A DNA stretch of 18,710 nt from a virus (taxonomy: Duplodnaviria; Heunggongvirae; Uroviricota; Caudoviricetes): IMG/VR virus record IMGVR_UViG_2541047722_000004; one strand, written 5' to 3'. The notes beneath the pieces are model-generated. The model made no database searches. It had not been told where the DNA came from and was given only the letters and a program-made list of their open reading frames with translations. Shown in pieces: positions 1 to 18,710 of this stretch. The translations under genes and the position numbers were made by a program. Positions within the stretch are counted from its first letter, which is position 1, and every line of letters starts with the position of its first letter.

Positions 1-117
1 GGCTGCTACACCATGTTGCCGGGCAACGAGGGAGACCGTCATCCCTGGTTCAAAGCTCTGCTGAACAATTGCGATCTTTTCCTGTGTGGTACGCCGTCTG
101 CGTTTCTCCGGTCCTAA
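1..117 (+). CDS. 3-prime end of an unidentified upstream ORF (frame 1 open from the window edge to TAA at 115-117)
   Basis: Frame 1 is open from position 1 and translates to ...[38 protein letters not shown]. It lies where an endolysin gene would sit in a lambda-type lysis cassette, but I do not recognise it as an endolysin. May be non-coding. Confidence 0.25.
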
Positions 118-142
118 GACATCAATCATCTGCTCTCCAATG

Positions 143-188
143 ACTAGTCTAAAAACTAGTATTAAGACTATCACTTAAATAAGTGATA
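143..188. repeat. Cluster of palindromes: ACTAGT-N6-ACTAGT (143-160) and a 9-bp inverted repeat TATCACTTA-AA-TAAGTGATA (169-188)
   Basis: Read directly from the sequence. Sits in the junction between the upstream ORF remnant and the truncated Rz reading frame. Confidence 0.6.
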
Positions 189-583
189 TTGGTTGTCTGG
201 AGATTCAGGGGGCCAGTCTAGCGCAACGCGATAATGTGAAGGAAAAACTCAACCAGGCGACCGCAATCATTACTGACATGCAGATACGCCAGCGTGATGT
301 TGCTGCACTCGATGCAAAATACCTGAAGGAGTTAGCTGATGCGAAAGCTGAAAATGATGCTCTGCGTGATGATGTTGCCGCTGGTCGTCGTCGGTTGCAC
401 ATCAAAGCAGTCTGTCCGTCCGTGCGTGAAGCCACCATCGCCTCCAGCGTGGATAATGCAGTCTCCCCCAGACTGGCAGACACCGCTGAACGGGATTATT
501 TCACCCTCCGGGAACGACTGGTAATGATGCAGGCCCAACTTGAAGGTGCTCAGCAATACATAACCGAACAGTGTTTAAAGTAA
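179..583 (+). pseudogene. rzpR: Rz-like i-spanin lacking the N-terminal transmembrane anchor (rzpR-like remnant)
   Basis: From about 212 the translation (AQRDNVKEKLNQATAIITDMQIRQRDVAALDAKYLKELADAKAENDALRDDVAAGRRRLHIKAVC...) matches lambda Rz as I remember it. The frame opens only at 179 after a TAA, has no ATG before the GTG at 236, and the upstream residues (ISDIGCLEIQGASL) are not a hydrophobic TM helix. Confidence 0.7.
339..524 (+). CDS. rzoR: Rz1-like o-spanin outer-membrane lipoprotein, embedded in the +1 frame of Rz
   Basis: 61 aa, MRKLKMMLCVMMLPLVVVGCTSKQ... : signal peptide with lipobox (VVGC) followed by a proline-rich mature region (PPSPPAWIMQSPPDWQTPLNGIISPS), closely resembling lambda Rz1. 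Embedding inside Rz is the classic spanin arrangement. Confidence 0.8.
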   Translation: MRKLKMMLCVMMLPLVVVGCTSKQSVRPCVKPPSPPAWIMQSPPDWQTPLNGIISPSGNDW

Positions 584-669
584 AATCTTAACTACAATAT
601 GATTCATTTTGATGATTGTTTCATAAGGAACAGTGAAGTAAGATCTAAGATGAGTTAAATTTTATACAG

Positions 670-703
670 TATAATCATAATGTTGCAGCAAGGTGGTTAT
701 AAT
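670..703 (+). promoter_or_regulatory. Possible sigma70 -10 elements (TATAAT at 670-675 and 698-703) upstream of trkG
   Basis: Two exact TATAAT hexamers in the AT-rich intergenic region before the trkG ATG at 721. No convincing -35 at canonical spacing; weak call by eye. Confidence 0.25.
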
Positions 704-720
704 TGAAAGAATATTTAGAT

Positions 721-2178
721 ATGAATACATCTCATGTAAGAGTTGTTACTCATATGTGTGGGTTCCTGGTTTGGCTCTATAGTCTTTCAATGTTGCCACC
801 AATGGTTGTAGCATTGTTTTATAAAGAAAAAAGCCTGTTCGTTTTCTTTATAACTTTCGTTATATTTTTTTGCATTGGTGGCGGAGCGTGGTATACAACT
901 AAGAAATCTGGTATTCAATTACGTACCCGTGATGGGTTTATTATAATTGTAATGTTTTGGATTTTGTTTTCTGTTATTAGTGCATTCCCTTTATGGATTG
1001 ACTCAGAACTTAATTTAACGTTTATTGATGCTCTATTTGAAGGGGTTTCTGGAATAACAACAACAGGAGCAACTGTAATTGATGATGTTAGTTCATTACC
1101 TCGGGCATATTTGTACTATCGGTCACAGTTAAATTTTATAGGTGGCTTAGGAGTTATTGTTCTGGCGGTTGCTGTATTGCCATTATTGGGTATTGGTGGT
1201 GCAAAGCTTTATCAGTCAGAAATGCCAGGGCCATTTAAGGATGACAAACTTACTCCCCGCCTGGCCGATACGTCACGGACACTTTGGATAACTTATTCTT
1301 TATTAGGTATTGCTTGTATTGTCTGTTATAGACTTGCAGGAATGCCTTTGTTTGATGCTATTTGTCACGGGATATCCACAGTTTCGCTTGGTGGTTTCTC
1401 AACTCATAGCGAGAGTATCGGATATTTTAATAACTATTTGGTTGAGCTGGTGGCTGGTTCTTTTTCCCTGCTATCGGCTTTCAACTTCACCCTTTGGTAT
1501 ATTGTTATTAGCAGGAAAACGTTAAAACCTTTAATCAGAGATATTGAACTTCGTTTCTTTCTGTTAATAGCCTTAGGGGTGATCATTGTTACCTCTTTCC
1601 AGGTCTGGCATATAGGTATGTATGACTTGCCTGGAAGTTTTATTCATTCGTTTTTTCTTGCCAGCTCCATGCTCACTGATAATGGTTTAGCTACGCAGGA
1701 TTACGCAAACTGGCCCACGCACACGATAGTGTTTTTGCTGTTGTCAAGTTTCTTTGGGGGATGTATAGGTTCAACTTGTGGTGGAATTAAGTCACTTCGA
1801 TTTCTTATACTTTTCAAACAAAGCAAACACGAGATAAACCAGCTTTCTCATCCCAGAGCGTTGTTGAGTGTAAATGTAGGAGGGAAGATAGTTACAGATC
1901 GTGTAATGAGGTCTGTATGGAGTTTCTTTTTTCTTTATACTCTCTTCACGGTGTTTTTTATACTGGTGTTAAATGGTATGGGATATGATTTTCTTACATC
2001 ATTTGCAACAGTGGCTGCATGTATTAATAATATGGGATTAGGTTTTGGGGCTACTGCATCGTCATTCGGAGTGCTTAATGACATTGCAAAATATTTAATG
2101 TGCATAGCTATGATTCTTGGTCGCCTTGAAATTTATCCTGTTATTATATTGTTTTCAGGTTTTTTTTGGCGCTCCTAA
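721..2178 (+). CDS. trkG: TrkG, TrkH-family K+ uptake membrane protein (prophage moron)
   Basis: 485 aa from ATG 721 (the track ORF opens at TTG 703). Multi-pass hydrophobic protein with TrkH/KtrB-type pore-loop glycines (e.g. GITTTGATV, VSLGGFS, NNMGLGFG). Sequence and position after Rz/Rz1 match E. coli Rac prophage trkG as I recall it. Visibly more AT-rich than flanking phage genes. Confidence 0.9.
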   Translation: MNTSHVRVVTHMCGFLVWLYSLSMLPPMVVALFYKEKSLFVFFITFVIFFCIGGGAWYTTKKSGIQLRTRDGFIIIVMFWILFSVISAFPLWIDSELNLTFIDALFEGVSGITTTGATVIDDVSSLPRAYLYYRSQLNFIGGLGVIVLAVAVLPLLGIGGAKLYQSEMPGPFKDDKLTPRLADTSRTLWITYSLLGIACIVCYRLAGMPLFDAICHGISTVSLGGFSTHSESIGYFNNYLVELVAGSFSLLSAFNFTLWYIVISRKTLKPLIRDIELRFFLLIALGVIIVTSFQVWHIGMYDLPGSFIHSFFLASSMLTDNGLATQDYANWPTHTIVFLLLSSFFGGCIGSTCGGIKSLRFLILFKQSKHEINQLSHPRALLSVNVGGKIVTDRVMRSVWSFFFLYTLFTVFFILVLNGMGYDFLTSFATVAACINNMGLGFGATASSFGVLNDIAKYLMCIAMILGRLEIYPVIILFSGFFWRS

Positions 2179-2264
2179 TATATGGCTGATTTATAATTGT
2201 GAGTTTAATATTATATTGACTCACTCATTGATCCAATACCTAACTTTACCAGCAACACCTCCGC

Positions 2265-2299
2265 CCCCAGTAGCACTGGCTGCTGGGGTGCGTTTTATT
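2265..2299 (+). terminator. Putative intrinsic terminator downstream of trkG
   Basis: 10-bp stem (2265-2274 CCCCAGTAGC pairing with 2279-2288 GCTGCTGGGG, one G-U pair) with loop ACTG, followed 4 nt later by TTTTATT (2293-2299). Confidence 0.45.
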
Positions 2300-2315
2300 C
2301 ATAAAGCAAGGCTGT

Positions 2316-3107
2316 ATGAGCGAGAAATTGAAGATCGTCTATCGCCCTTTACAAGAACTGTCTCCGTATGCACACAACGCCAGGACACACAGCCCTGAGC
2401 AGGTGGCACAACTGGTAGAAAGCATTAAGCAATTCGGCTGGACTAATCCGGTGCTGATTGATGAAAAGGGCGAAATTATTGCTGGTCACGGTCGCGTTAT
2501 GGCGGCTGAAGTGCTCAAAATGGATTCCATTCCGGTCATCGTTCTGTCTGGTTTGATGGATGATCAGAAAAAGGCGTACCGCCTGGCAGATAATCGCCTG
2601 CCGCTGAACGCTGGCTGGGATGAAGAACTGTTGCGGATGGAGCTGTCGGAGCTAATCAATGCTGATTTTGATATCTCCCTGACAGGATTCAGCCCGACAG
2701 AAATTGATGAACTGTTGACGGATGTTTTGCCAGGTACAGGAAATGAGGAGGAGCCGTACACGACGAAAATTGATACGCCTGTTTATGAGCCGTCGGGCGA
2801 TAAACCGGACATCAGTGAGCTGTACGACGATACGAAAACTCAGGAGCTGATCAGCCGGATACGTTCGGCGTCCCTTGAGCCCGATATCGAAAAATTCCTC
2901 CTGTGCGCGGCAGAACGCCACACGGTGTTTAATTTCAGCAGAATTGCGGACTATTACGCTCACGCCCCCGCTGAAATTCAGTGTTTTTTCGAGGAGTCGG
3001 CGCTGGTGATCATTGATTATCAGCAGGCTATTGAAAATGGATTTGTCCGGATGACGCAGCGCATGGTGGAGATCATGCATGGTGGTGAGGAGGAGGAATA
3101 TGCGTGA
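2316..3107 (+). CDS. ParB-like nuclease (ParB/Srx N-terminal domain) protein with an uncharacterised C-terminal domain
   Basis: 263 aa. N-terminal region (YRPLQELSPYAHNARTHSPEQVAQLVESIKQFGWTNPVLIDEKGEIIAGHGRVMAA) has the ParB/Srx motif pattern. The short K-12 Rac ORF ynaK next to trkG appears, from memory, to be an N-terminal fragment of this type of gene. Stop overlaps the next gene. Confidence 0.75.
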   Translation: MSEKLKIVYRPLQELSPYAHNARTHSPEQVAQLVESIKQFGWTNPVLIDEKGEIIAGHGRVMAAEVLKMDSIPVIVLSGLMDDQKKAYRLADNRLPLNAGWDEELLRMELSELINADFDISLTGFSPTEIDELLTDVLPGTGNEEEPYTTKIDTPVYEPSGDKPDISELYDDTKTQELISRIRSASLEPDIEKFLLCAAERHTVFNFSRIADYYAHAPAEIQCFFEESALVIIDYQQAIENGFVRMTQRMVEIMHGGEEEEYA

Positions 3108-4032
3108 TGATTTTTGCGCCTTTATTCTGACTCACGGGCGACCGGACAAAGTTCTGACTTACCGGACGTTGCGTCGTGCTGGCTATACCGGGAAAATTTT
3201 TATCGTTGTTGATGATGAAGATAAGACACGGCATCAGTACATGGCTGAATTTGGTGAACAGGTGCTGGTGTTTTCCAAAGCCGATATCGCCAGTCGTTTT
3301 GACGAAGCCGATAATTTCGGTGACCGCCGCTCAATTTTTTACGCCCGTAATGCCTGTTTCGACCTGGCAAAACTGGTCGGGTGTAAATACTTCATTCAGC
3401 TCGATGATGATTATCACGAGTTCCAGTTTCGGGTGGATCGCAACTATGACCAGGCCTATTTTCCGATAAGGAAACTGGATGCGATCCTTTCTGAAATGCT
3501 GGCGTACTACGAATCAATACCTGCTCTTTCCATCGCTATGTCGCAGGGCGGGGATTTTCTTGGTGACAATGGCGGCCATGCTTCGTGGGTGAAACGCAAG
3601 GCAATGAACAGCTTTATCTGTTCGGTTGATCGACCGTTCTCATTCATGGGGCGCATTAACGAGGATGTGAATACGTACACGAATCTCGGTCGCTGTGGTG
3701 AATTGTTTATGACGATCGGTGCTGTCCAGTTAGGGCAGAAACAGACGCAGAAAAACAGCGGCGGAATGACCGAGCTGTATCTGGATTCCGGAACCTACGT
3801 TAAAAGTTTTTACTCCGTCATGTATGCGCCGTCGTGCGTAAAAATCTCACTGATGGGTGCCAGCCATAAACGCATTCACCATCAGGTCACTTGGAACAAC
3901 GCTGCAGTAAAAATCCTTCACGAAAAATACAGGAAGAAGACACCCTGCATATCAATAGGGGTGACAAATGATTCCATATTCGAAAGTCGAGTCTCTGGCA
4001 GCGTGCCGGATGACTGCACAACAAATCGCTGA
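3100..4032 (+). CDS. Hypothetical protein, possible GT-A-fold nucleotide-sugar transferase (DxD motif)
   Basis: ATG at 3100 preceded by strong SD GAGGAGGAGG (3087-3096); the track ORF opens at 3079. Overlaps the ParB-like gene stop by 8 nt. Motifs resemble GT-A/GT2 enzymes: FILTHGRPDKV (first strand plus loop), IFIVVDDEDK, and FIQLDDDYHEF (DxD). Fold assignment is by motif resemblance only. Confidence 0.55.
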   Translation: MRDDFCAFILTHGRPDKVLTYRTLRRAGYTGKIFIVVDDEDKTRHQYMAEFGEQVLVFSKADIASRFDEADNFGDRRSIFYARNACFDLAKLVGCKYFIQLDDDYHEFQFRVDRNYDQAYFPIRKLDAILSEMLAYYESIPALSIAMSQGGDFLGDNGGHASWVKRKAMNSFICSVDRPFSFMGRINEDVNTYTNLGRCGELFMTIGAVQLGQKQTQKNSGGMTELYLDSGTYVKSFYSVMYAPSCVKISLMGASHKRIHHQVTWNNAAVKILHEKYRKKTPCISIGVTNDSIFESRVSGSVPDDCTTNR

Positions 4033-4219
4033 CGTTCTGGATGTTGATCTGAACCGACTGAAAGAAAATCGGGAAGCAATGACAGATTTTTATGCGGCCA
4101 TCCGTAAGGGCAGAGCGAAAGGTGAAGCCGAGTTACGAGCGGCATTGTTTAAGCTTGCCAGAAAAGGGGATGCCTTTGCTCTGCGCGAACTACTCAGGGT
4201 GGATAAAAATCAGGACTAA
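3968..4219 (+). CDS. Small hypothetical protein, possibly HTH DNA-binding (packaging-associated)
   Basis: 83 aa from ATG 3968 (SD-like GGGGTG 6 nt upstream); overlaps the 3-prime end of the preceding gene by 65 nt in another frame. An alternative start at ATG 4010 gives 69 aa. Helix-rich, basic (AQQIADVLDVDLNRLKENREAMTDFYAAIRKGRAKGEAELRAALFKLARKG). Ends 3 nt before terS. Confidence 0.45.
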   Translation: MIPYSKVESLAACRMTAQQIADVLDVDLNRLKENREAMTDFYAAIRKGRAKGEAELRAALFKLARKGDAFALRELLRVDKNQD

Positions 4220-4222
4220 CTG

Positions 4223-5317
4223 ATGAGCAGACCGGACTGGGGGGCGTTGCAGCAGGAGTATATTGCTGAATACACCCGCTCCGGTATATCTCCGGTGGCA
4301 TGGTGTGAAGCAAGGGGACTGAATTACGCAACAGCCCGTCGTTACATCAAAAAACCTCCGAAAAATGCGCAGACAGAAATGCGCAAAACTGCGCAAAAAA
4401 GTGCGCAGAAAAAATCTGCGCAGACTGCACAAAAGCGGAACGAAAAATCTCAGGAAAAAAAGCCAGTATTCGATGCGGGCCTGAATGAGGGCGACGCGGA
4501 GGAATTTTCGTTCTGTCCCGATGAATTCGGCATTTCTGACCAGCAGGCTAAGTTTGCGATGCTTGTTGCTCAGGGGAAAAAGCCGACAGAGGCGTACCGA
4601 CTAGCCGGTTATGAGGGGCAAGGTGCGACAGCTAACAGCAACGCCAGTCGTATGCTTAGAAATGCCAGGGTTTTTCGCGCTATCAGCTACTTCCGCAATC
4701 AGTACCAGAAACGCTATACCGCAGACCTGGATTTACTGGTGAGTCAGTTGATGGCCATTGTCCTGGCCGACCCCAATCAGCTTGCACAATTTCGCCGTGT
4801 TAACTGCCGTTATTGCTGGGGCGAGAATCATCTCTACCAGTGGCGCGATATAGCAGAATTCGACAAGGCAGCGGCGCAGGCTTCCAGAGATGGCAAACCC
4901 GAACCGGAATATGGAGGCCTCGGCTTTGTTGATAACGCCATACCCAATCCGGACTGCCCGAAGTGCTGCGGTGAGGGAACGGGACAGCTTTATATGGCTG
5001 ATACCACTCTGCTTGATGGGGATGCGCGGCAATTATATGCAGGGGCAAAACTCGGAAAATTCGGCGTTGAGATCCTGCTGGAGGATAAGGCTGCCGCCCG
5101 GCGTGAATTGTTGCGTTTGCTTTCTGCTGGCGGGGCTTTATGTGCAGATAAGCGGCTACAGGAACTGGAAATTGAACGACGCAGAATGGAAAACCAGAAG
5201 CTGCGCAAAGAGATCGAAACGGTGGAAGATAATGAACATCCCCAGCCTGTGGCGATCAATATTAATGTGGTTGATGCCAGAGTAAGGAGTGATGAAGATG
5301 ATCTCTCCGACGCTTAA
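4223..5317 (+). CDS. Terminase small subunit (Terminase_2-like core with N-terminal HTH, K/A/Q-rich linker and Cys4 motif)
   Basis: 364 aa. Core motif ISDQQAKFAMLVAQGKKPTEAYRLAGYEGQGATANSNASRMLRNARVFRAI matches the pattern of phage small terminase subunits. Sits immediately upstream of the large terminase gene and overlaps its start. Confidence 0.8.
   Translation: MSRPDWGALQQEYIAEYTRSGISPVAWCEARGLNYATARRYIKKPPKNAQTEMRKTAQKSAQKKSAQTAQKRNEKSQEKKPVFDAGLNEGDAEEFSFCPDEFGISDQQAKFAMLVAQGKKPTEAYRLAGYEGQGATANSNASRMLRNARVFRAISYFRNQYQKRYTADLDLLVSQLMAIVLADPNQLAQFRRVNCRYCWGENHLYQWRDIAEFDKAAAQASRDGKPEPEYGGLGFVDNAIPNPDCPKCCGEGTGQLYMADTTLLDGDARQLYAGAKLGKFGVEILLEDKAAARRELLRLLSAGGALCADKRLQELEIERRRMENQKLRKEIETVEDNEHPQPVAININVVDARVRSDEDDLSDA
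4366..4431. repeat. Array of five perfect TGCGCA palindromic hexamers plus one degenerate copy (TGCACA), spaced 10-15 bp with A-rich spacers
   Basis: TGCGCA at 4366, 4380, 4390, 4402, 4417 and TGCACA at 4426. Encodes the N-A-Q / M-R-K / T-A-Q / S-A-Q linker of TerS; the copy at 4380 is in a different codon phase from the others. Confidence 0.6.
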
Positions 5318-6599
5318 TGTGCCTCAGGCGCGATTTCTTTCAATGCCCCATAAATTTAAAGCCTATATTGCTGGTTTTGGCTCGGGCAAAACATGGGTTG
5401 GGTGTGGCGGCATATGCAAGGGGATTTGGGAGCATCCAGGTATAAATCAGGGATATTTTGCGCCAACGTATCCCCAAATTCGCGATATTTTTTACCCTAC
5501 AGTGGAAGAAGTTGCTGCTGACTGGGGATTGAACGTAAAAATTAATGAGGGAAATAAAGAGGTTCACTTTTATTACGGACGCCAGTATCGGGGAACCACT
5601 ATCTGCAGATCGATGGAGAAGCCACAAACGATCGTCGGTTTCAAAATTGGTAATGCGCTGGTGGATGAACTGGACATTTTGCCGAAGGAAAAAGCCAGAA
5701 CGGCGTGGCGCAAGATAATTGCGCGTATGCGTTATAAGATTGATGGACTTCGCAACGGTATTGACGTTACAACCACGCCGGAAGGATTCAAATTTGTCTA
5801 CGAGCAGTTTGTTAAAGCCGTGCGTGAAAAAACAGAGCTGGCCTCACTGTATGGTCTGGTGCAGGCATCTACTTTCGATAATGAAAAGAACCTGCCAGCA
5901 GATTACATTCCTTCGCTTCTTGAATCATACCCTCCAGAGCTGATTAAAGCCTATCTTCGAGGACAGTTTACTAACCTGACAAGTGGTACTGTTTACCATC
6001 AGTTTGACCGGAAACTGAATAATTGCGAAGAAGTGGAGCAGCCAGGGGAGCCGATTTATATTGGGATGGATTTTAACGTTGGAAAGATGGCGGGGATCGT
6101 CCATGTGCTGCGTTTGGGGCTTCCATGTGCGGTAACTGAAATCATCAATGCCTACGATACGCCGGATATGATCCGCATCATTAAAGAACGCTTCTGGCTG
6201 TATGACGGGAATGATTACCGGAAAGTGAGGGAGATTTATATTTATCCAGATGCTTCCGGAGATTCCAGAAAATCAAGTAACGCAAGTACGACGGATATAG
6301 CCCAGCTTAAGCAGGCTGGTTTTAACGTTGTGGTGAACAGCTCGAACCCGCCAGTAAAAGATCGCGTTAACTCAATGAATGCAATGTTCTGCAATGCCAA
6401 TGGTGAGCGTCGCTATAAAGTTAATGTGAAGCGTTGTCCGGTATATGCCGAATCTCTGGAGCAACAGGTCTGGGATGATAAGGGGGAGCCTGATAAAAAA
6501 TCTGGCAATGATCACCCGAATGATGCCGGAGGTTATTTCATCGTTAAGCAATTCCCTATTGTCAAACCGACCGGAAGAGTCACATCACTTCGGATTTAA
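5298..6599 (+). CDS. Terminase large subunit
   Basis: Walker A motif (AGFGSGKT) near the N-terminus, then an ATPase region and C-terminal nuclease-like region. SD AAGGAG at 5284-5289 favours ATG 5298; GTG 5289 and ATG 5292 are alternative starts (the track ORF starts at 5289). Confidence 0.9.
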   Translation: MISPTLNVPQARFLSMPHKFKAYIAGFGSGKTWVGCGGICKGIWEHPGINQGYFAPTYPQIRDIFYPTVEEVAADWGLNVKINEGNKEVHFYYGRQYRGTTICRSMEKPQTIVGFKIGNALVDELDILPKEKARTAWRKIIARMRYKIDGLRNGIDVTTTPEGFKFVYEQFVKAVREKTELASLYGLVQASTFDNEKNLPADYIPSLLESYPPELIKAYLRGQFTNLTSGTVYHQFDRKLNNCEEVEQPGEPIYIGMDFNVGKMAGIVHVLRLGLPCAVTEIINAYDTPDMIRIIKERFWLYDGNDYRKVREIYIYPDASGDSRKSSNASTTDIAQLKQAGFNVVVNSSNPPVKDRVNSMNAMFCNANGERRYKVNVKRCPVYAESLEQQVWDDKGEPDKKSGNDHPNDAGGYFIVKQFPIVKPTGRVTSLRI

Positions 6600-6601
6600 T
6601 T

Positions 6602-8008
6602 ATGGCTGATATATCAACACCCAACCTCGACTATAACGATATGCTGGAGGCGTGGGATATTAACGACGCATTGATGGGCGGTACGCTTGAAATGCGCAGG
6701 CAGGGGGAAAATTATCTCCCCAAATGGCCTAATGAAGATGAAGACGCTTATAAAAAACGCCTGTCTGTGGCTACGCTACTTCCTGTGTATGAAGAAAGCA
6801 TCAAACAAAATATTGGGCGCATATTTGCAGAGCCGACAGTATTGAGTGAGGAAACGCCGGAAAAAATCAGGGAATATGCAGAAAATATCGACATGGAGGG
6901 GAGCCGACTGGATGTGTGGGCGCAGCAATTTTTCAGTCTCGCATTTCAGTATGGTGTGGCACATGCGCTGGTGGACTATCCACGAACGGATATGAAAGAG
7001 ATTCGGACAAAAGCCGATGAAAACGCGGCCGGTGGTCGCCCGTACGTTACGATGCTGAATCCACGCCAGGTTATTGGATGGAAATCGAAAGTTGAAAAAG
7101 GGAAAGTTGTTCTCACTGATTTGCGTATAAAAGAGGTCATCATTATTGATGGTGATGATTTCGGGCAGAAGAAGGTGGAGCAGATCCGCCATATTATGCC
7201 CCGTCGAGTTGAAATTTATCGACGCAGCGAAGGTACTAATGGCGAATCTGTCTGGACGCTTCATGAGTCATGGAATACCAGCCGTGATGATATTCCTCTG
7301 GTAACACTGTATACGAAGAAAACAGGGTTTATGCGTGGTACACCGCCATTGCTTAATCTTGGCTTGCTGAATATCAAGCACTGGCAAAGCCAGAGCGAGC
7401 AGGACAATATTCTTCATGTTGCCCGCGTTCCATTGCTGGTGGCCTACGGGCTGGACAGGAATGAAGAACTGACGGTTGGTGCATCCACCGCTACGATTTT
7501 TGAGGACAGAACAAAAAATGGCCTCGAATATGTTGAACATAGTGGCGCAGCGATAGAATCTGGCGAAACATCACTTGAGAAGCTGGAAAATCAGATGCGT
7601 CATGCCGGCGCTAAACTTCTGCGGGCTGAAAATACATCCACCAAATCTGTTGATCAGACTAATGAAGAGCGGATGCAGGAACACTCGCCGCTTTATACAA
7701 TGGCGAACTCCCTCGAAGATGCCCTCGATAATATTCTCCAGATAATGGCGGAATGGAGCGGAGAGAGTTGCGGTGGCAATGTGGATGTGCGCACTGAACT
7801 GGATGTATCTGCCCAGGTGTTTGACTCATCCTCCGCGCTGGCTGTTCAGTCATTGCGTCAGGGCGGTGATATACGTCAGATTGATGCGGTTCGGGTGTTG
7901 CAGGCGTTGAAATTTATCGATCAGGATTCCCGTCCAGAGGAAGTGATCGATGAATTAAAAAATCAGAGTGTAATGCTGATGGAAATCAATGATGCAAACC
8001 GTGAATGA
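6602..8008 (+). CDS. Portal protein
   Basis: 468 aa ORF starting 2 nt after the terminase stop, in the canonical position after TerL; size and composition consistent with SPP1-type portal proteins. Confidence 0.8.
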   Translation: MADISTPNLDYNDMLEAWDINDALMGGTLEMRRQGENYLPKWPNEDEDAYKKRLSVATLLPVYEESIKQNIGRIFAEPTVLSEETPEKIREYAENIDMEGSRLDVWAQQFFSLAFQYGVAHALVDYPRTDMKEIRTKADENAAGGRPYVTMLNPRQVIGWKSKVEKGKVVLTDLRIKEVIIIDGDDFGQKKVEQIRHIMPRRVEIYRRSEGTNGESVWTLHESWNTSRDDIPLVTLYTKKTGFMRGTPPLLNLGLLNIKHWQSQSEQDNILHVARVPLLVAYGLDRNEELTVGASTATIFEDRTKNGLEYVEHSGAAIESGETSLEKLENQMRHAGAKLLRAENTSTKSVDQTNEERMQEHSPLYTMANSLEDALDNILQIMAEWSGESCGGNVDVRTELDVSAQVFDSSSALAVQSLRQGGDIRQIDAVRVLQALKFIDQDSRPEEVIDELKNQSVMLMEINDANRE

Positions 8009-9104
8009 ACGGCTGCGTGATGAATCAATTGCTCATGCAGTCTGGATATCCCGCTATAGCACTGGTGTGGCTGCCAGAATAGTGAAAATACTGAATGACA
8101 GCGATGCGGAGCTTACAGCTCGCCTGCTGGTAGCACTGGACAGCCTCGATCCTAGTAGTTTTACCGTTACGCGCCTGGAGTCACTTCTGGCGAGTGTCAG
8201 AGAGGTTAACCGCACTGCTATTAACAGCATGTTTACCAGTCTCTCCGGAGAGCTGAACGAGCTGGCAATTTATGAGGTTGGTTATCAGTTAAGTCTGTTT
8301 GATTCTCTGCTACCTGATTTTGTTGCTGATGTTCACCCTCTGGTTGGTATCTCTTCTGATGCACTTTACGCCGCTGCAATGGCGCGACCATTCCAGGGAC
8401 GACTGCTCAGTGAGTGGGCCTCAGATCTTGAGGCGGATCGGCTCAGACGCATAACAAATACGGTGCGTCAGGGTTTTTTGCTGGGGGATACCAATGAGCA
8501 GATCGCAAGAAAAATTCGGGGACATGTCAGTAAGGGATTTCAGGATGGTGCATTGCAGATGAGCCGGGCTAATGCGGCCAGCATTGCAAAAACAGCGGTT
8601 GGACATCTTGCTGCTACTGCTCGTGAGAGTTTTGCACGCGCGAATAATGATTTGATTAAGGGTAAGCAATGGTTATCAACGCTTGATAATCGTACTACGC
8701 CACAATGTCGAATCAGGGATCGCCTCAAATATACGCTGGATAATAAACCTGTAGGTCACAGCGTGCCTTATTTGCAGGGGCCGGGAAAAATTCATTTCTG
8801 CTGCCGCTCAACGGAAACGTTCATTCTGAAATCAGCGAAGGAACTGGGTATTGATGTTCGTGATATTTCCCCGGCTGAGCGGGCCAGCATGGATGGCGTG
8901 GTGGCCGGAGATACAACCTACAGGGAATGGTTTTTGCGTCAGCCTTACACCAGACAAAAACAGATTGTGGGGGAAACCCGGGCAAAGCTGATTCGGGATG
9001 GTGGTATGTCGCCAGATGAATTTTACACCGATAAAGGCGAATGGCTGACGCTGAAGCAACTCCGTGAGCGTGATGCACAGGTATTCAGAAAAGCAGGGAT
9101 TTAA
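7989..9104 (+). CDS. Head morphogenesis / minor head protein (SPP1 gp7 / Mu F-like)
   Basis: 371 aa ORF overlapping the portal stop by 20 nt, canonical position after portal; alternative ATG at 7992. Confidence 0.7.
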   Translation: MMQTVNERLRDESIAHAVWISRYSTGVAARIVKILNDSDAELTARLLVALDSLDPSSFTVTRLESLLASVREVNRTAINSMFTSLSGELNELAIYEVGYQLSLFDSLLPDFVADVHPLVGISSDALYAAAMARPFQGRLLSEWASDLEADRLRRITNTVRQGFLLGDTNEQIARKIRGHVSKGFQDGALQMSRANAASIAKTAVGHLAATARESFARANNDLIKGKQWLSTLDNRTTPQCRIRDRLKYTLDNKPVGHSVPYLQGPGKIHFCCRSTETFILKSAKELGIDVRDISPAERASMDGVVAGDTTYREWFLRQPYTRQKQIVGETRAKLIRDGGMSPDEFYTDKGEWLTLKQLRERDAQVFRKAGI

Positions 9105-9123
9105 ATAAATCATTTATTACAAC

Positions 9124-9148
9124 AGGCTACCTTCGGGTGGCCTTTTTT
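9124..9148 (+). terminator. Intrinsic terminator-like hairpin with TTCG loop
   Basis: 8-bp stem AGGCTACC / GGTGGCCT (one G-U pair), loop TTCG (9132-9135), followed by TTTTTT (9143-9148). Lies 20 nt after the head morphogenesis stop and upstream of the scaffold start. Confidence 0.6.
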
Positions 9149-9208
9149 ATTGCTGCGATCCGGATGGTGAGCAGCGTAACTGTCGGAAGACTTAAACCAG
9201 GTACTAAT

Positions 9209-9973
9209 ATGAAACTGAAAACGGTCGAGATTAACGGAAAACAATACGCAGAAATTGATACTGCTGGCCTGCCAGTTTATGTGCACGACGATGGTAAAGA
9301 AATCGGCTTCGATGCACCGCTGGCGACAAAAAAAATTACAGAACTTAATGGCGAGGCAAAAAATCATCGCCTGGCTAAAGAAGCTGCAGAGGAAAAACTG
9401 GCTAAGTTTGCCGCTATCGAAGACCCGAAGAAGGCGATCGAGGCACTGGAAATGCTGTCAAAAATCGACCAGAAAAAGCTGATCGATGCGGGACAGGTTG
9501 ACCAGGTTAAGGCTGAAATTACGAAAAATTTTCAGCAGCAATTAGATGAAGAAAAGCAACGCTCTCAGATGCTGGAGAAGCAGCTTTACGATTCTATGAT
9601 TGGCGGTAGTTTTGCGGGTTCAAAATATATTGCCGATAAAATTGCGATCCCGGCAGATTTATTACAAGCCCGCTTCGGACAGGCATTCAAAGTGGAAGAA
9701 GGGAAGATCGTTGCTTATGACGCTTCCGGCAACAAAATTTATTCCCGCGCGAAGCCAGGAGAACTGGCGCAGTTTGATGAGGCGCTGGAGTTCCTCGTCG
9801 AAAATTACCCTCAGAAAGACTACATCCTGAAAGCCAGTGGCAACAATGGCGGCGGTTCCCGTCCGACACAGCATGATATTGGTCAGAAAACGATGAAACG
9901 CTCTGCTTTTGATGCACTGGATGTTGCAGGTAAGCAAAACGCACTGAAAGACGGTATCACAATCGTTGATTAA
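9209..9973 (+). CDS. Capsid scaffolding protein (putative)
   Basis: 254 aa from ATG 9209 (MKLKTVEING...). The track ORF opens at 9137, but that extension overlaps the terminator hairpin. Helix/coiled-coil-rich, charged sequence immediately upstream of the major capsid gene. Confidence 0.6.
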   Translation: MKLKTVEINGKQYAEIDTAGLPVYVHDDGKEIGFDAPLATKKITELNGEAKNHRLAKEAAEEKLAKFAAIEDPKKAIEALEMLSKIDQKKLIDAGQVDQVKAEITKNFQQQLDEEKQRSQMLEKQLYDSMIGGSFAGSKYIADKIAIPADLLQARFGQAFKVEEGKIVAYDASGNKIYSRAKPGELAQFDEALEFLVENYPQKDYILKASGNNGGGSRPTQHDIGQKTMKRSAFDALDVAGKQNALKDGITIVD

Positions 9974-10071
9974 TACATTTGCCAGCTTCCGGATGGGAGT
10001 TGGTGTCAGGGCTGGATAGCTCACTACTCAATCCATTCACAATTACGCAAATTTTTAAGGAATATTTAATT

Positions 10072-11211
10072 ATGGCTGGAAATACCCTGACCGGGTTGAT
10101 CCCGACTATTTACACCGCCCTGGATGTTGTATCCCGTGAGCAGGTAGGTTTTATCCCTGCGGTAGCAAAAAACGCAAAAGCTGACGCCGCAGCAAAAGAT
10201 CAGACGGTAACCGCGCCAGTTGCGCCTGAGGCGAAAACCGAAGATATCGTACCGGGGCCGTCAGCTCCGAATACCGGTGATCAAAATATTGGCACTGTTG
10301 ATGTAAAAATTACTAAATCCAAAATGGCGCCGGTTAAATGGAATGGTGAAGAACAACTGGCTCTTGGCCCTTCAGGGACTTACAACACCATTCTGGCTGA
10401 TCAGTTCAAGCAGGCTTTTCGCGCCCTTGCAAACGAGGTTGAGGCTGATCTTGGTGTGTTGTATTTCGGTGCTTCCCGCGCCGTGGGAACCGCAGGGACA
10501 ACGCCGTTTGGTGTTAAAGATGATCTTTCTGATGCTGCTCTGGCTCGTCAGGTTCTGGAGGATAACGGCGCACCGACAACAGATCTGCAGATGGTGCTTG
10601 GTTCCACTGCCATTGCTAATTTGCGCGGAAAACAGTCTGTATTGTTTAAAGTGAATGAATCCGGCACTGAACAGCTACTGCGTGAGGGCGTGTTGGGGCG
10701 TCTGGAGGGATTCAATATTCACAGTTCGGCAGGTGTAAAACGAGCGCCAAAGGTTGCTGCAACTGGTTATCTCGTGAATGGCGAGAAAAAAGAAGGCGAT
10801 GTTCTTATTTCCATTGATACTGGTTCGGGGAGTATTTCTGCAGGTCAGATTGTTACGTTCGCTGGCGATCCTAATCAGTATGTTGTGGCAGCAGCGACCA
10901 GCAATCTGATTACTCTTGCAGCACCGGGACTGCGTCAGGATCTGGCCGATGATACTGCAATCACAGTTGTTGGCTCCTTTACTGCAAATATGGCGTTTGA
11001 TCGCAACGCGTTTCTGCTGGCATCCCGTACTCCGGCAATGCCGGAAGGTGGCGATAATGCTGATGATGTAATGAATGTTACGGACCCGATTTCAGGGATT
11101 ACGTTCCAGATTGCACTGTATCGTCAGTATCGCCAGGTGCGCTATGAAGTTGGACTGGCATGGGGTGTTTCGTCAGTGAAACCGGCACATGGTTGTCTGA
11201 TTCTTGGTTAA
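10072..11211 (+). CDS. Major capsid protein
   Basis: 379 aa from ATG 10072 (MAGNTLTGL...), with AAGGA RBS at 10057-10061; the track ORF opens at 9979. Position after scaffold, size and composition fit a major capsid protein. Followed by a strong terminator. Confidence 0.75.
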   Translation: MAGNTLTGLIPTIYTALDVVSREQVGFIPAVAKNAKADAAAKDQTVTAPVAPEAKTEDIVPGPSAPNTGDQNIGTVDVKITKSKMAPVKWNGEEQLALGPSGTYNTILADQFKQAFRALANEVEADLGVLYFGASRAVGTAGTTPFGVKDDLSDAALARQVLEDNGAPTTDLQMVLGSTAIANLRGKQSVLFKVNESGTEQLLREGVLGRLEGFNIHSSAGVKRAPKVAATGYLVNGEKKEGDVLISIDTGSGSISAGQIVTFAGDPNQYVVAAATSNLITLAAPGLRQDLADDTAITVVGSFTANMAFDRNAFLLASRTPAMPEGGDNADDVMNVTDPISGITFQIALYRQYRQVRYEVGLAWGVSSVKPAHGCLILG

Positions 11212-11221
11212 ACATCCAAAC

Positions 11222-11241
11222 GGGGCTTCGGCCCCATTTTT
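11222..11241 (+). terminator. Intrinsic terminator after the major capsid gene
   Basis: GGGGC-TTCG-GCCCC hairpin (11222-11235) followed by ATTTTTA; next gene has RBS GGAGGG and ATG at 11254. Confidence 0.65.
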
Positions 11242-11253
11242 AATGGAGGGTAT

Positions 11254-11478
11254 ATGGCCGGATTAACTAAAGAGCAAAGAGCACAGCGTGAAGCCGCGCA
11301 AAAAAATGCAGTGGTGGAGCAAAATGTGGAGCAAATTCAGGAGCCACAAAAAACGCAAATTGAGTTAGTGGTTATGGTGACCGATTATCAGATGTTTCCC
11401 GGCGCACCAACTATCGCTAATGTTCATCCTGATGAAGTTGACAACTGGAAGGCTCTGGGCTGGAAAACTCAGGAGTAA
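11254..11478 (+). CDS. Small hypothetical head-associated protein
   Basis: 74 aa ORF with RBS (GGAGGG) at good spacing, between capsid and connector genes; function unknown. Confidence 0.5.
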   Translation: MAGLTKEQRAQREAAQKNAVVEQNVEQIQEPQKTQIELVVMVTDYQMFPGAPTIANVHPDEVDNWKALGWKTQE

Positions 11479-11481
11479 CAC

Positions 11482-11877
11482 ATGATCACTTACGTGACCT
11501 GTGATGACGTTGATAATGCGTTTGGGAACGCCTGGACGAGTGAGAACGCTAAAAATAAAGCTGTTTTAATGGCTAATGCCTGGCTTAATGGCTTCGGCCT
11601 GAAAATTAACCCATCCCGTATTCCGGAAGAGGTAAAACTTGCGGGAGCATATGCAGCCAGAATTGCCTCTGTCGGTAAGTTGTTTCAGCAGAAAAATGAT
11701 TCTGGCGTTGTTATCAGTAAAGCCGTGTCGGCTGACGGGGTCAGTGTATCGAAATCATTTGCTGAATTGCCAGCAAACAGCACTGCATTGCTTGAACCCG
11801 ATTTACAGCTTGCGATAGCACTGCTGAAACCGTACGGACTTAGTCGCTCACAAGTCAGGGTTGTGAGGGGGGGATGA
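11482..11877 (+). CDS. Head-tail connector protein (gp6-like, putative)
   Basis: 131 aa ORF in the canonical position after the capsid gene; stop overlaps the next start (ATGA at 11874-11877). Confidence 0.55.
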   Translation: MITYVTCDDVDNAFGNAWTSENAKNKAVLMANAWLNGFGLKINPSRIPEEVKLAGAYAARIASVGKLFQQKNDSGVVISKAVSADGVSVSKSFAELPANSTALLEPDLQLAIALLKPYGLSRSQVRVVRGG

Positions 11878-12260
11878 TGGGGCTTCGTGAAGAGATTCAG
11901 TCAGAGGTTGCCGCTGCTTTTGATGAGGATTTAGCAGACGCCGTGAGTGATTTTTCTGGTTCTTACGTTGCGCACCGGAACTGGAATCCAGTGACGGAAA
12001 CTGGCGGCGAATCCACAGCAACCTATACCGGGCGAGGCGTGTTGACGCGTTATAAGCTGGGCAGAATTGATGGGATTAATATTTTGCATGGTGACCTTAA
12101 ATTAACAGCTCTGGTATGCGAGGTTACGGATAAAACCGCTGTCGGCCATATTATTGAGATTTATGATCCTGTATCAAGGCAGTTGCAACGATACGAGGTA
12201 ATTACAGCGAGTGTAGATCCTTCCGCATCAGTTTACTCAATCCAGTTAAGGAGAGCGTAA
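11874..12260 (+). CDS. Head closure / head-tail joining protein (putative)
   Basis: 128 aa ORF translationally coupled to neighbours on both sides; positional assignment only. Confidence 0.5.
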   Translation: MMGLREEIQSEVAAAFDEDLADAVSDFSGSYVAHRNWNPVTETGGESTATYTGRGVLTRYKLGRIDGINILHGDLKLTALVCEVTDKTAVGHIIEIYDPVSRQLQRYEVITASVDPSASVYSIQLRRA

Positions 12261-12641
12261 ATGGCAAAGGCATGGGATATCGAACCGTCAATATTTGCCG
12301 GGATGATTGAGGAAGATGTGGGGCTGAAAATTCGCTACATCGCTATTCAGATTCTTACTGCTATCGATATTGCTGCTCCGGTTGATACCGGGCGTTTCAG
12401 AAATAACAACATGGTGTCGTTACAGCATCCCGATTTTGGTATATCTGATAACGTGGATCCGAACGGTACGATTGCGGTTCAGCGTGGGATCGGGGTTATT
12501 TCGAAAGCTGCAAATTACGGAATTATTTATATCCAGAATAACCTTCCTTATGCAGAGGCTCTTGAAAACGGTCATTCACAACAAGCGCCAACTGGCGTGT
12601 ATGCCAACGCTTTTCATGGTGTTTTACAGGCTTACAAATGA
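12261..12641 (+). CDS. HK97 gp10-like neck / tail attachment protein (putative)
   Basis: 126 aa; contains a PVDTGRFRNN motif resembling the conserved DTG-x-(L/F)R motif of the HK97 gp10 family. Stop overlaps the next start (ATGA at 12638-12641). Confidence 0.55.
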   Translation: MAKAWDIEPSIFAGMIEEDVGLKIRYIAIQILTAIDIAAPVDTGRFRNNNMVSLQHPDFGISDNVDPNGTIAVQRGIGVISKAANYGIIYIQNNLPYAEALENGHSQQAPTGVYANAFHGVLQAYK

Positions 12642-13030
12642 CGTTTACTGAAATCAGAAATACGGTCATTTCCAGAATGACGGCACAGACGGTTATTAAT
12701 GGAAAAGACGTATTGTATCCGAACGGGCCAACGTTCGATCCTTCCGGTAAGTTAATCTGGGCGCGGTTAAGTAATATTCCCGGGCAGGCTGGAGTTAATG
12801 AAATTGGTGCGGGGCCGGTTGTTTATCGCACGGGGATAATCATTATTCAGTTATTTGTCCCCGCAGGTTCTGGTTCAAAACTCATTACTGAGACAGCCGA
12901 TAAATTGCGGGAACTGTTTGAGTTTCAGGATGACGACCGTCTCAGTTACCAGGCTGTTTCCTCAATAACCGTTGGCGAAAAGAATGGCTGGTTCCAGCTT
13001 AATCTTCAAATTCCATATCGCGCGCTCTAG
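12638..13030 (+). CDS. Tail completion / tail terminator protein (putative)
   Basis: 130 aa ORF immediately upstream of the major tail gene; positional assignment (lambda gpU-equivalent slot). Confidence 0.5.
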   Translation: MTFTEIRNTVISRMTAQTVINGKDVLYPNGPTFDPSGKLIWARLSNIPGQAGVNEIGAGPVVYRTGIIIIQLFVPAGSGSKLITETADKLRELFEFQDDDRLSYQAVSSITVGEKNGWFQLNLQIPYRAL

Positions 13031-13056
13031 CGCAATTAATGACATAGGAGGCTCCT

Positions 13057-14019
13057 GTGAGTTCAGGTGCAAAGGTTATCTCGGCATTTATCCGGGAGAC
13101 AGTTGCAGGCACCACACCAGCAAGTGGTGACTGGAGTTTATTAAAACGCACAAGCTGGGGAGTAAAACCCACCCAGAATAAAGGCGAAAATAATGAGATT
13201 GGTGGCTCCCGGATGGCTCAGGGGGCGACGCCTGGCACTGTGGATGTTGGCGGTGATGTTGGTACCAAATTTCGCTGGGGTCAACATGATGATTTTCTTG
13301 CATCCTGTTTCGGCGCGGAATGGTCAGGTGATTCTCTGACAATGGGGAATGAGCGAATAACATTTTCTCTGGCGACCTATGCGTCCGATGTCGGAATTGC
13401 CTCTGTTGTCAGAGGAGCGCAGGTTGGCTCATGGAAAATGCAGATCCCTAACGACGGCGATATTACGGCGACCGTAACCTTTGCCGGGCTGGACTGGGAA
13501 TCAAAGGCCGATGATACGAATTTTATCAAAGGCGAACCTGTGGATAGTGCAGGAAAGCTACGTTATTCGTTTAAGGAGGTTTCAGCAGTAAGCCTGAATG
13601 GTGTTGCCGGAGGTAACGGTTTTTGTATCGACAGTTTTGATATTCAGTTCGATAACAAACTCCAGACACAGCGTTGTATCGGGACTGGCTCGCCTTATGC
13701 AGGAGCAAATATTCCGACTACTTTTACACCGTCCGGTACGGTGACGCTTTCATGGTCTAAAGCCGCGTGGGAAATCTGGAGTAAAACACTGACTGGAGAA
13801 ACAGTTCCGTTCAGCTTCACGCTTTCGAATGGAGAGGGGGCATACACTTTCAGTTTCCCGAAGGTTCAGATGTCAGGTGAATGGCCTGATGGGGGTAATA
13901 CCGACATTATCCAGGTTCAATTGAGCATTACCGCAGCAGATGAAGCACCTACGATAACCAGAAAAAAAGCCTCCCCGGCTGCCGTGATCGCAAAAGCCAG
14001 TGCTGAGGCGATTAGTTGA
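13057..14019 (+). CDS. Major tail (tube) protein
   Basis: 320 aa from GTG 13057 with SD AGGAGG 5 nt upstream. Gly/Thr/Ser-rich, beta-type composition; lies directly upstream of the G/GT chaperone pair as lambda V does. Confidence 0.7.
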   Translation: MSSGAKVISAFIRETVAGTTPASGDWSLLKRTSWGVKPTQNKGENNEIGGSRMAQGATPGTVDVGGDVGTKFRWGQHDDFLASCFGAEWSGDSLTMGNERITFSLATYASDVGIASVVRGAQVGSWKMQIPNDGDITATVTFAGLDWESKADDTNFIKGEPVDSAGKLRYSFKEVSAVSLNGVAGGNGFCIDSFDIQFDNKLQTQRCIGTGSPYAGANIPTTFTPSGTVTLSWSKAAWEIWSKTLTGETVPFSFTLSNGEGAYTFSFPKVQMSGEWPDGGNTDIIQVQLSITAADEAPTITRKKASPAAVIAKASAEAIS

Positions 14020-14031
14020 TTTTCCGTTATT

Positions 14032-14058
14032 CCCCCTGTGGTACTGCACTACAGGGGG
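14032..14058 (+). other. Stable stem-loop (8-bp stem CCCCCTGT / ACAGGGGG, 11-nt loop) with no U-tract
   Basis: Read directly from the sequence, 13 nt after the major tail stop. Not a canonical intrinsic terminator; possible RNA processing or stability element. Confidence 0.5.
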
Positions 14059-14133
14059 GCGCATTGAATGAGGTTATGGATGTTTATTCTTAATCAGAAA
14101 ATTATCATCGGTGGTGAACGCTGGTTTACCCCA

Positions 14134-14529
14134 ATGAAGGACTTAAAACCTGTAGACGGGTTAAAACTGTTGGTGGCAAGCAGCGATAACGATCAGTATC
14201 GCTCCCGTAATGCATTAATCCGTCGCCACATTGAGAAAATGGATGCCAGTTTGCACGTCGGAACGAAGGAGTTTGATATTGCAAAGGTTTCCGAGGTGGA
14301 TTCTGTTGATGATTTACTCATTGATAATGCTGCTCGTTATCTGCTGAAAGACTGGAAAGGGGTTGGTGAACTGGTTGATGGTGTTGAGGTTGCACTGGAA
14401 TATACGCCAGAACGAGGGATCGCGCTGCTTAAGCAGAATCCGGAGTTGTACTGGCAGATCCTTGCAGAAGCAGCCAGCATCGCCCAGGGTAAAGAGCAGC
14501 AGAAGCAGGATACGATAAAAAAGCCATAG
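14134..14529 (+). CDS. Tail assembly chaperone (lambda G-like)
   Basis: 131 aa from ATG 14134 (MKDLKPVDG...); the track ORF opens at 14068. Acidic protein between the major tail and tape measure genes; ends with the slippery heptamer A AAA AAG one codon before the UAG stop. Confidence 0.7.
   Translation: MKDLKPVDGLKLLVASSDNDQYRSRNALIRRHIEKMDASLHVGTKEFDIAKVSEVDSVDDLLIDNAARYLLKDWKGVGELVDGVEVALEYTPERGIALLKQNPELYWQILAEAASIAQGKEQQKQDTIKKP
14517..14523 (+). promoter_or_regulatory. Programmed -1 ribosomal frameshift slippery site A AAA AAG
   Basis: Heptamer in X XXY YYZ register in the chaperone frame (codons AAA 14518-14520, AAG 14521-14523), with the 0-frame stop UAG at 14527-14529. The -1 frame is open from 14523 to 14837. 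Confidence 0.65.
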
Positions 14530-14837
14530 CCGCCCAGCGGTGGTTATCGGAGTTCGGGGGAGAAAAGGGTGAAAAGGCAAGATGGAAGCGAGAAAAACTC
14601 AGGTTGCCACCGATACCGGAACCAGAAATAGACCCGGTGCTTAAGGAATTGTTGTACGCCTATTCGGTAATATCCCGTGCCCGACGTTATGCTGGAATGA
14701 CTGGGGTGCCTTTGCCTTTATCTCTGACAGAGATAAATGAATATTTAGCCACTCATCCGGTATTGATTGAGCGCGATGAATTTGAAGCAGTGATCTTTGC
14801 ACTGGATGACCAGTATTTTCAGGAGCAGTGTGTGTAG
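14523..14837 (+). CDS. -1 frame extension of the tail assembly chaperone (lambda GT-like fusion segment)
   Basis: Frame is open from 14523 (...DTIKK / AIAAQRWLSEFGGEKGEKARWKREKLRLPPIPEPEIDP...) to TAG at 14835-14837. No independent ATG or RBS; the track ORF at 14604 starts at TTG. Expected product is a fusion of roughly 235 aa made by frameshifting. Confidence 0.6.
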   Translation, partial: AIAAQRWLSEFGGEKGEKARWKREKLRLPPIPEPEIDPVLKELLYAYSVISRARRYAGMTGVPLPLSLTEINEYLATHPVLIERDEFEAVIFALDDQYFQEQCV

Positions 14838-14957
14838 TTGTTAATTACGTACACTCTGTTACAGAGATGTGATGGTGTCTTTAATTAAATCGATGATGCT
14901 CCTGGAGAAAAGCATTGCGTGGCCTCGTAATCGCTATATCTACTATTATGTCGCCTG

Positions 14958-14980
14958 AAACCCACTTCGGTGGGTTTTTT
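14958..14980 (+). terminator. Intrinsic terminator between the chaperone and tape measure genes
   Basis: AAACCCAC-TTCG-GTGGGTTT hairpin followed by a T-run (TTTTTT 14975-14980, then GTTG). Tape measure RBS AGGAG at 14986-14990 and ATG at 15001. Confidence 0.6.
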
Positions 14981-15000
14981 GTTGTCAGGAGTTTTAATGA

Positions 15001-18000: not shown

Positions 18001-18234
18001 CCATTAACGCGAACTTCCGATGGTTCTCTTGGTGTCAGAGCTATTAATAGTAAAAGTGGTAATGGAGGCAGAGATATTACTTATGCCCCTGTATACCAAA
18101 TCACTATTCAAAATGACGGCCAGAATGGAGAGATTGGTCCTCAGGCAATAAAAGCACTTATGGGGATGGTTGATCAGCGGGTGCAGGGCGCTCTGTTAAA
18201 TATGCGACGTGATGGAGGAATGTTAAGTGGCTAA
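15001..18234 (+). CDS. Tail tape measure protein
   Basis: 1077 aa, the longest ORF, following the G/GT chaperones. Coiled-coil-rich N-terminal part with internal repeats, a central hydrophobic segment ([20 protein letters not shown]...[14 protein letters not shown]), and a long helical C-terminal part. Confidence 0.9.
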
Positions 18235-18565
18235 TACGGAAGAATTTTACTGGTTACCAGAGGATGGAATGAAAACAGAAAATAAGCCATCGATAAAAAC
18301 TGTAAGATTTGGCGATGGTTATGAACAACGAAGCCCAAACGGACTTAATCATTCTCTGCGTGTTTTTACCTGTGATTTCAGGGTTGAGGCGAATGAACGT
18401 AATTCATTTGAACTGTTTCTGGCTCGGCATGGAGGCTATAAATCTTTTTTTTGGCGCCCGCCGGGTATTAACAGAAAAATCAGAGTGGTGTGTCGAACGT
18501 GGTCAGCGACAGAACATATCACCTATACCGATTTTTCGTGTCAGTTTGACGAAGTGGTGATCTGA
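18227..18565 (+). CDS. Minor tail protein M (lambda gpM-like)
   Basis: 112 aa from GTG 18227, overlapping the tape measure stop by 8 nt. Contains [16 protein letters not shown]...[12 protein letters not shown]...F..QFDEVV, matching lambda M (VRFGDGYSQRAPAGLN...HGGWKSFLWTPP...FEQVV) from memory. Confidence 0.85.
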
Positions 18566-18710
18566 TGCAGGACATACGACAGGAAACACATCATGAGACG
18601 ACACGCCTTACTCAGTCAGCCCAGGTGGTGCTCTGGGAAATCGATCTGACAGAGGTCGGTGGTGAACGTTATTTTTTCTGTAATGAGCAGAACGAAAAAG
18701 GTGAGCCGGT
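18565..18710 (+). CDS. Minor tail protein L (lambda gpL-like), 5-prime partial, truncated by the window end
   Basis: ATG at 18565 overlaps the M stop (TGATG). Translation [48 protein letters not shown] is near-identical to the lambda L N-terminus as recalled. Confidence 0.85.
   Translation, partial: MQDIRQETHHETTRLTQSAQVVLWEIDLTEVGGERYFFCNEQNEKGEP

Follow-up and report, generated by a model that had tools for sequence, protein, structure and literature searches.

Lysis cassettes of trkG-linked Rac-like prophages

The Rac-like prophages of E. coli 042 and APEC O1 carry an intact lysis cassette, in the order essD (holin), rrrD (lysozyme), Rz/Rz1 and trkG, which is of the S-R-Rz/Rz1 type of phage lambda. 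Rz, the i-spanin, is described in the literature as an inner-membrane protein of type II topology, anchored by its transmembrane domain (residues 1-24). Rz needs such a membrane anchor, and an artificial transmembrane domain can replace the native one (PMC5295617). The intact Rz of E. coli 042 has 154 aa and a hydrophobic N-terminus (MNRVTAIISALVICIIVCLSWAV; mean Kyte-Doolittle value of 2.3), which forms a clear transmembrane segment.

A defective version of this cassette is found in the Rac prophage of K-12, where rzpR/rzoR, immediately upstream of trkG, represent a defective Rz in which the embedded gene for an Rz1-type lipoprotein has remained intact (~97% identity to the locus studied here). 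In K-12 Rac, homology to the intact cassette runs from ~Rz nt 21 (L004:4201), adjoining ydaW, which means that the start of Rz is missing along with lysozyme and holin; an IS plays no part in this lesion. As this homology begins inside the ydaW coding sequence, the 3' end of ydaW is Rz-derived. The annotated rzpR pseudogene (L004 4346-4645) spans only part of the Rz remnant.

Two further trkG-linked Rz genes are interrupted by a complete IS2. In E. coli FACU 2024 (NZ_CP147009.1) the element lies after Rz nt 81 and is flanked by the 5-bp duplication CCGTG, while in CP026831.1 it lies after nt 182, with the duplication GATGT. In both cases IS2 has the same orientation as in the locus described below, the holin and lysozyme genes are kept upstream, and the palindrome of the element has the K-12-type centre.

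Here we analyzed a stretch of 18,710 nucleotides (the window), which corresponds to E. coli HVH 59 scaffold KE699351.1 (GCA_000456885.1; L005), starts there at position 5766 and shows no mismatch along 6,583 nt. Its host prophage is a Rac-like, trkG-carrying lambdoid prophage, in which Rz is split. The gene order and the upstream holin and lysozyme are as in 042 and APEC O1, and the DNA is identical from Rz nt 103 on but for 4 substitutions in 18.5 kb; unlike in those strains, IS2 parts Rz codons 1-35 from codons 35-154. We considered whether the lesion was identical to the K-12 rzpR deletion and rejected this, since HVH 59 has retained holin, lysozyme and Rz nt 1-71. The insertion point in HVH 59 (nt 102/107) differs from those at nt 81 and nt 182, and the three insertions are therefore independent events. 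The features at the start of the window are as follows.

1-220, minus strand: left 220 nt of IS2 (IS3 family), with IS2 nt 1 at window 220 and nt 220 at window 1, from the alignment with IS2A
1-129, minus strand: first 43 codons of IS2 orfA (insC; HTH_Tnp_1), with the ATG at IS2 nt 92, cut by the window start
143-160, no strand: ACTAGT-N6-ACTAGT (143-148 and 155-160; IS2 nt 61-78), in the orfA leader downstream of PIRL, identical in IS2A
165-173, minus strand: extended -10 of the weak IS2 promoter PIRL, TGATAGTCT (IS2 nt 48-56; from PMC3299598 and the alignment, with the probable extent of the hexamer)
169-188, no strand: 9-bp inverted repeat with arms TATCACTTA (169-177) and TAAGTGATA (180-188), equal to IS2 nt 33-52
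179-220, minus strand: left terminal inverted repeat of IS2 (IRL), 42 bp, TAGACTGGCCCCCTGAATCTCCAGACAACCAATATCACTTAT, from the alignment with IS2A, its length from PMC3299598
221-225, plus strand: GCGCA, predicted right-hand copy of the target duplication, by analogy with CCGTG and GATGT
221-583, plus strand: 3' fragment of the Rz i-spanin gene, codons 35-154 and stop, 100% identical to E. coli 042 Rz nt 103-465
339-524, plus strand: Rz1 o-spanin, intact, 61 aa, proline-rich (PF06085, E=4e-18; lipobox LVVVGC)

Since window 221 is Rz nt 103, codons 35-154 are kept unchanged, and the fragment is also identical to the corresponding part of the intact 154-aa Rz of the APEC O1 Rac-like prophage. 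It encodes the periplasmic domain alone, with neither a transmembrane domain nor the native start. The match to PF03245 (E=4e-48; profile positions 7-125 of 126) begins at residue 15 of the translation, which is window 221. This agrees with the alignment to the intact cassette of 042, in which the breakpoint falls at 220/221 and Rz resumes at nt 103. The original prediction had placed an abrupt start of Rz homology around 212; the break is indeed abrupt, and only its position needs to be corrected to 220/221. Upstream of it, the frame is closed by a TAA at 176-178, and the next 14 residues (ISDIGCLEIQGASL) are not hydrophobic and contain no membrane segment. The earliest conventional in-frame start in the remnant is GTG 236. 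As had been claimed, Rz in the window thus lacks an N-terminal transmembrane anchor continuous with the periplasmic domain, and judged by its sequence it is a disrupted member, that is, a pseudogene, of the PF03245 i-spanins.

The claim of an intact, proline-rich Rz1 with a VVGC lipobox was equally borne out. Rz1, which begins MRKLKMMLCVMMLPLVVVGC..., lies within Rz in the +1 frame and is preceded by AAGGAG, 7 nt before the ATG; at the DNA level it does not differ from the intact E. coli 042 allele.

Downstream of Rz, the lysis cassette is separated from the packaging genes by trkG (721-2178), a host-type K+ transporter gene, an arrangement shared with K-12 Rac. Just past the Rz stop, at 574-603, there is a weak promoter-like match. 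Deposited phage records, for example vB_EcoS-683R6, have the identical Rz-trkG-terminase order at ~98.5% identity. Just upstream of the small terminase, window 2316-4032 encodes a ParB_N-domain protein of 263 aa followed by a 310-aa PF20691 (TAGT) protein; the ParB_N-domain protein is full length here, whereas it is truncated (as ynaK) in K-12 and in FACU 2024. Between the tail tube and tape measure genes (window 14068-15000) there is a ydaY-like ORF, which ends at 14529, followed by ~470 nt without an ORF of at least 80 aa. In lambda-like phages, a frameshifted tail assembly chaperone is encoded between the tail tube and tape measure genes.

The structural module had been described as apparently intact, and our comparison agrees with this description. 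Window 221-18710 differs from the E. coli 042 prophage by 4 substitutions (3891, 5933, 6985 and 16191) and 0 indels over 18,490 bases, and the terminase, portal, capsid, tail tube and tape measure ORFs have lengths equal to those of the strain 042 annotation. From its sequence, the module looks intact, and beyond the IS2 insertion nothing visibly decays. So few substitutions relative to strain 042 also argue that the insertion is recent.

The IS2 left end and its palindromes

When window 1-720 was compared with 5,426 complete E. coli genomes by megablast, the query was split. Positions 1-220 matched thousands of loci annotated as IS3 family or IS2 transposase, while 220-720 matched a "lysis protein" upstream of trkG, with 100% identity in E. 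coli 042, APEC O1 and others. Among these results, matches H2-H15 place the IS2 left end at varying upstream distances, some of them within the lysozyme gene.

The reverse complement of window 1-235 was then aligned to IS2A, the curated mobile element annotated in E. coli K-12 MG1655. Window 220 to 1 equals IS2A nt 1-220, with 215 of the 220 positions identical (97.7%; 5 mismatches), and the alignment starts exactly at IS2A nt 1 (TAGACTGGCCCCC...). The left terminal inverted repeat beginning TAGACTGGCCCC is present, with identity to the reference IS2 from the terminal base onwards; the IRL of IS2 is 42 bp long (PMC3299598), and its last base here differs from the A of K-12. The Shine-Dalgarno sequence is shared with IS2A as well. 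The orfA ATG at IS2 nt 92 matches that of K-12 insC1, and the gene called here in L005 carries PF01527. The alignment and the OrfA start together indicate that the window begins within IS2 and that window 220 is the outermost base of the IRL. By all the features that can be tested in its sequence, the element at 1-220 is IS2. Only these left 220 nt lie in the window; the DDE transposase domain of orfB, the -1 frameshift window and the right inverted repeat fall in an assembly gap of 1,655 N.

The ACTAGT-N6-ACTAGT motif and the 9-bp inverted repeat exist where the original prediction had placed them. It had proposed that they might mark a deletion or recombination scar, or else a protein-binding site. 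Both palindromes are internal IS2 sequence and also occur in K-12 IS2A, which removes the scar, and their conservation in a repeated element of thousands of E. coli records makes them neither chance occurrences nor specific to this junction. The binding-site proposal survives for 169-188 alone, where the site serves IS2 and not the phage. The IS2 transposase footprint covers IS2 nt 39-48, including the OrfA repressor docking site TAAATAA (PMC3299598), and the TGAT of the PIRL extended -10 lies at IS2 nt 48-51 (PMC3299598, Lewis et al. 2012). This published numbering agrees with the window-IS2A alignment at every base. By the alignment and that numbering, the 169-188 repeat straddles the inner end of the IRL and includes the OrfA-repressor/transposase footprint (window 173-182), and it runs into the TGAT of PIRL, the promoter that drives orfA/orfAB away from Rz. 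The ACTAGT-N6-ACTAGT motif could form a 6-bp hairpin, to judge from its letters.

At the centre of the 20-bp palindrome (178-179), K-12 IS2A has AA in the IS2 orientation, whereas this copy has TT. The 20-mer found here is the exact reverse complement of the K-12 version, with TAAATAA on the opposite strand. Both alleles are common: in BLAST searches with 56-nt queries, which seeded on both alleles so that only the counts at ≥99% identity are usable, 1,074 records matched the 56-mer of this copy, compared with 4,097 for the K-12 type.

The interrupted gene on both sides of the assembly gap

Taken together, a transposition of IS2 into the Rz i-spanin gene of a Rac-like prophage very probably explains the truncated Rz. 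In this event, an IS2 copy (1.3 kb, IS3 family) would have transposed into Rz at codon 35/36, with its transposase genes antisense to Rz and pointing away from the downstream fragment. We infer a simple insertion with a 5-bp target duplication, GCGCA. Such an insertion would read ...CCTACAAAGCGCA / TGGATTTGCCCC...(IS2)...GGCCAGTCTA / GCGCAACGCG, and the IS2 right end is predicted to be joined to ...TACAAAGCGCA.

The source scaffold supplies the part of the cassette that the window lacks. Window base 1 (L005:5766) directly follows the 1,655-N gap (L005:4111-5765), and before this gap, on the same strand as the window, the holin and lysozyme genes and Rz nt 1-71, the part of Rz coding for the membrane anchor, are all intact. 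This pre-gap region has 1 mismatch to strain 042 over 3,970 nt. The original prediction, which had found no recognizable endolysin upstream, is correct for the window, since only 220 bases precede the break there and all of them are IS2; for the prophage it does not hold, as lysozyme and holin lie intact beyond IS2 and the gap. Anchor, endolysin and holin were invisible in the window because it starts inside IS2, directly after the run of N. Inspection upstream for both genes, which had been proposed together with the alignment to intact cassettes, thus recovered them.

The gap also leaves room for more than a simple insertion: IS2 may have caused a deletion or rearrangement next to itself, or the insert may be larger or composite, with two IS copies or extra DNA. 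Rz nt 72-102, the IS2 right end and the left-hand target duplication all fall within the run of N, and a simple insertion is therefore probable rather than proven. At 1,655 N, the annotated gap exceeds by ~500 nt the ~1,147 nt that a single IS2 and the Rz bases absent from the scaffold would take up. In addition, neither the right-end junction nor the duplication is seen, and the predicted N-terminal Rz::IS2 right-end fusion for this site had no exact match in a set of 5.8 billion proteins; what the search returned were Rz-IS2 fusions with other insertion points (P0001-P0003), along with unrelated genes in their thousands that read into IS2. Scaffold gap lengths, however, are estimates, and the excess may reflect a loose estimate or more than one IS2 in the gap. 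Moreover, the scaffold puts Rz nt 1-71 and, with it, lysozyme and holin immediately before the gap, on the strand of the window and near-identical to 042, so that ≤31 nt of Rz could be missing, and the two other IS2 insertions in Rz described above are simple, with 5-bp duplications. We therefore regard a more complex event, with IS2 still present, as unlikely, although it is the alternative that keeps the most weight.

It is highly improbable that the IS2/Rz junction is an artefact of assembly or scaffolding and that Rz is intact in the real genome. IS copies do break short-read assemblies, and the window adjoins a gap. The exact junction is also missing from the large collections searched: there was no single-piece high-identity match across it in the 5,426 complete E. 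coli genomes, and the 41-nt IS2/Rz junction had no match in species-representative genomes or JGI metagenome contigs. Against this, the junction is located in contiguous sequence at the precise IS2 terminus. An exact-protein look-up with the 115-aa leftover Rz ORF returned two assemblies, GCA_000456885.1 and GCA_903975485.1 (L006), and the second one has the identical IS2/Rz junction, in a contig that ends within IS2. As the junction occurs independently in GCA_903975485.1, it is no artefact of a single assembly.

We give equally little credence to the idea that a functional Rz variant is still made from the truncated ORF (GTG 236 or ATG 278 to 583). The frame does stay open for 115 aa, and NCBI annotates it as 'lysis protein' (WP_021522737.1). 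However, its product has neither a transmembrane domain nor a signal sequence and would not leave the cytoplasm, and the anchor is needed for Rz function (PMC5295617). Scanning 1-760 for promoters and terminators likewise revealed nothing promoter-like that points out of IS2 to the Rz fragment on the plus strand of 1-235, which is a weak negative.

A decayed lysis cassette, the original prediction, in which the Rz N-terminus and the endolysin had been lost by deletion or recombination and the palindromes were the scar, has practically no standing left. It suits a window without anchor, start codon or endolysin, and K-12 Rac does show a true deletion of this type, with homology from ~Rz nt 21. 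It is refuted, however, because IS2 fills the window up to 220, exactly to its terminal base and with palindromes that K-12 IS2A shares, and because the anchor start, endolysin and holin are intact across the gap in the source scaffold.

Predicted consequences for lysis and late transcription

Under the IS2 insertion that we favor, the anchor fragment and the periplasmic domain would no longer be one protein, and with the two on separate fragments no functional i-spanin would be expected. Rz1 alone would be insufficient to breach the outer membrane, and lysis of the induced cell would halt at a spherical stage, with the outer membrane as its boundary. Particles would then be released by shear or through spanins from another prophage. 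The possible lysis defect raised by the original prediction is thus a reasonable expectation for the outer-membrane step: without a working i-spanin the prophage is probably impaired in the last step of lysis, with nothing deleted. The phenotype may be mild, since lambda Rz mutants classically still lyse in shaken, low-cation cultures.

Transcription of the downstream genes could also be affected. The late-promoter transcript would extend to Rz1, trkG and the structural genes only after passing through the 1.3 kb of IS2. Read-through across IS2 would probably need Q-type antitermination, and given that no outward promoter-like site was found at the IS2 end, it would depend on it.

Independent IS2 insertions are present in E. 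coli prophage Rz genes at four or five sites, all oriented as here (L002:2890-4220; L008:3183-4513; P0001-P0003). We considered a hot spot for IS2 in Rz and dropped it: among 6,422 recorded ORFs reading into the IS2 right end there are 3 Rz fusions, which by rough proportion is about the expectation from target size, so no enrichment and no hot spot are evident. The same rough check lends no support to the idea that IS2 in the spanin gene of trkG-carrying Rac-like prophages is recurrently favored, as a reversible block to virion release that keeps trkG and other prophage genes. We consider it quite improbable that either this idea or an altered IS2 self-repression through the flipped OrfA-site allele holds.

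For the reading of similar loci, a truncated gene with palindromes at its junction, placed at the edge of a window, can be the end of an IS beside an assembly gap. Insertion of an IS is a textbook route of prophage inactivation and already known, and the present case carries little weight beyond annotation. For E. coli HVH 59, it predicts a prophage that is otherwise near-identical to an intact relative but lacks the i-spanin, and whose particle release after induction could drop.
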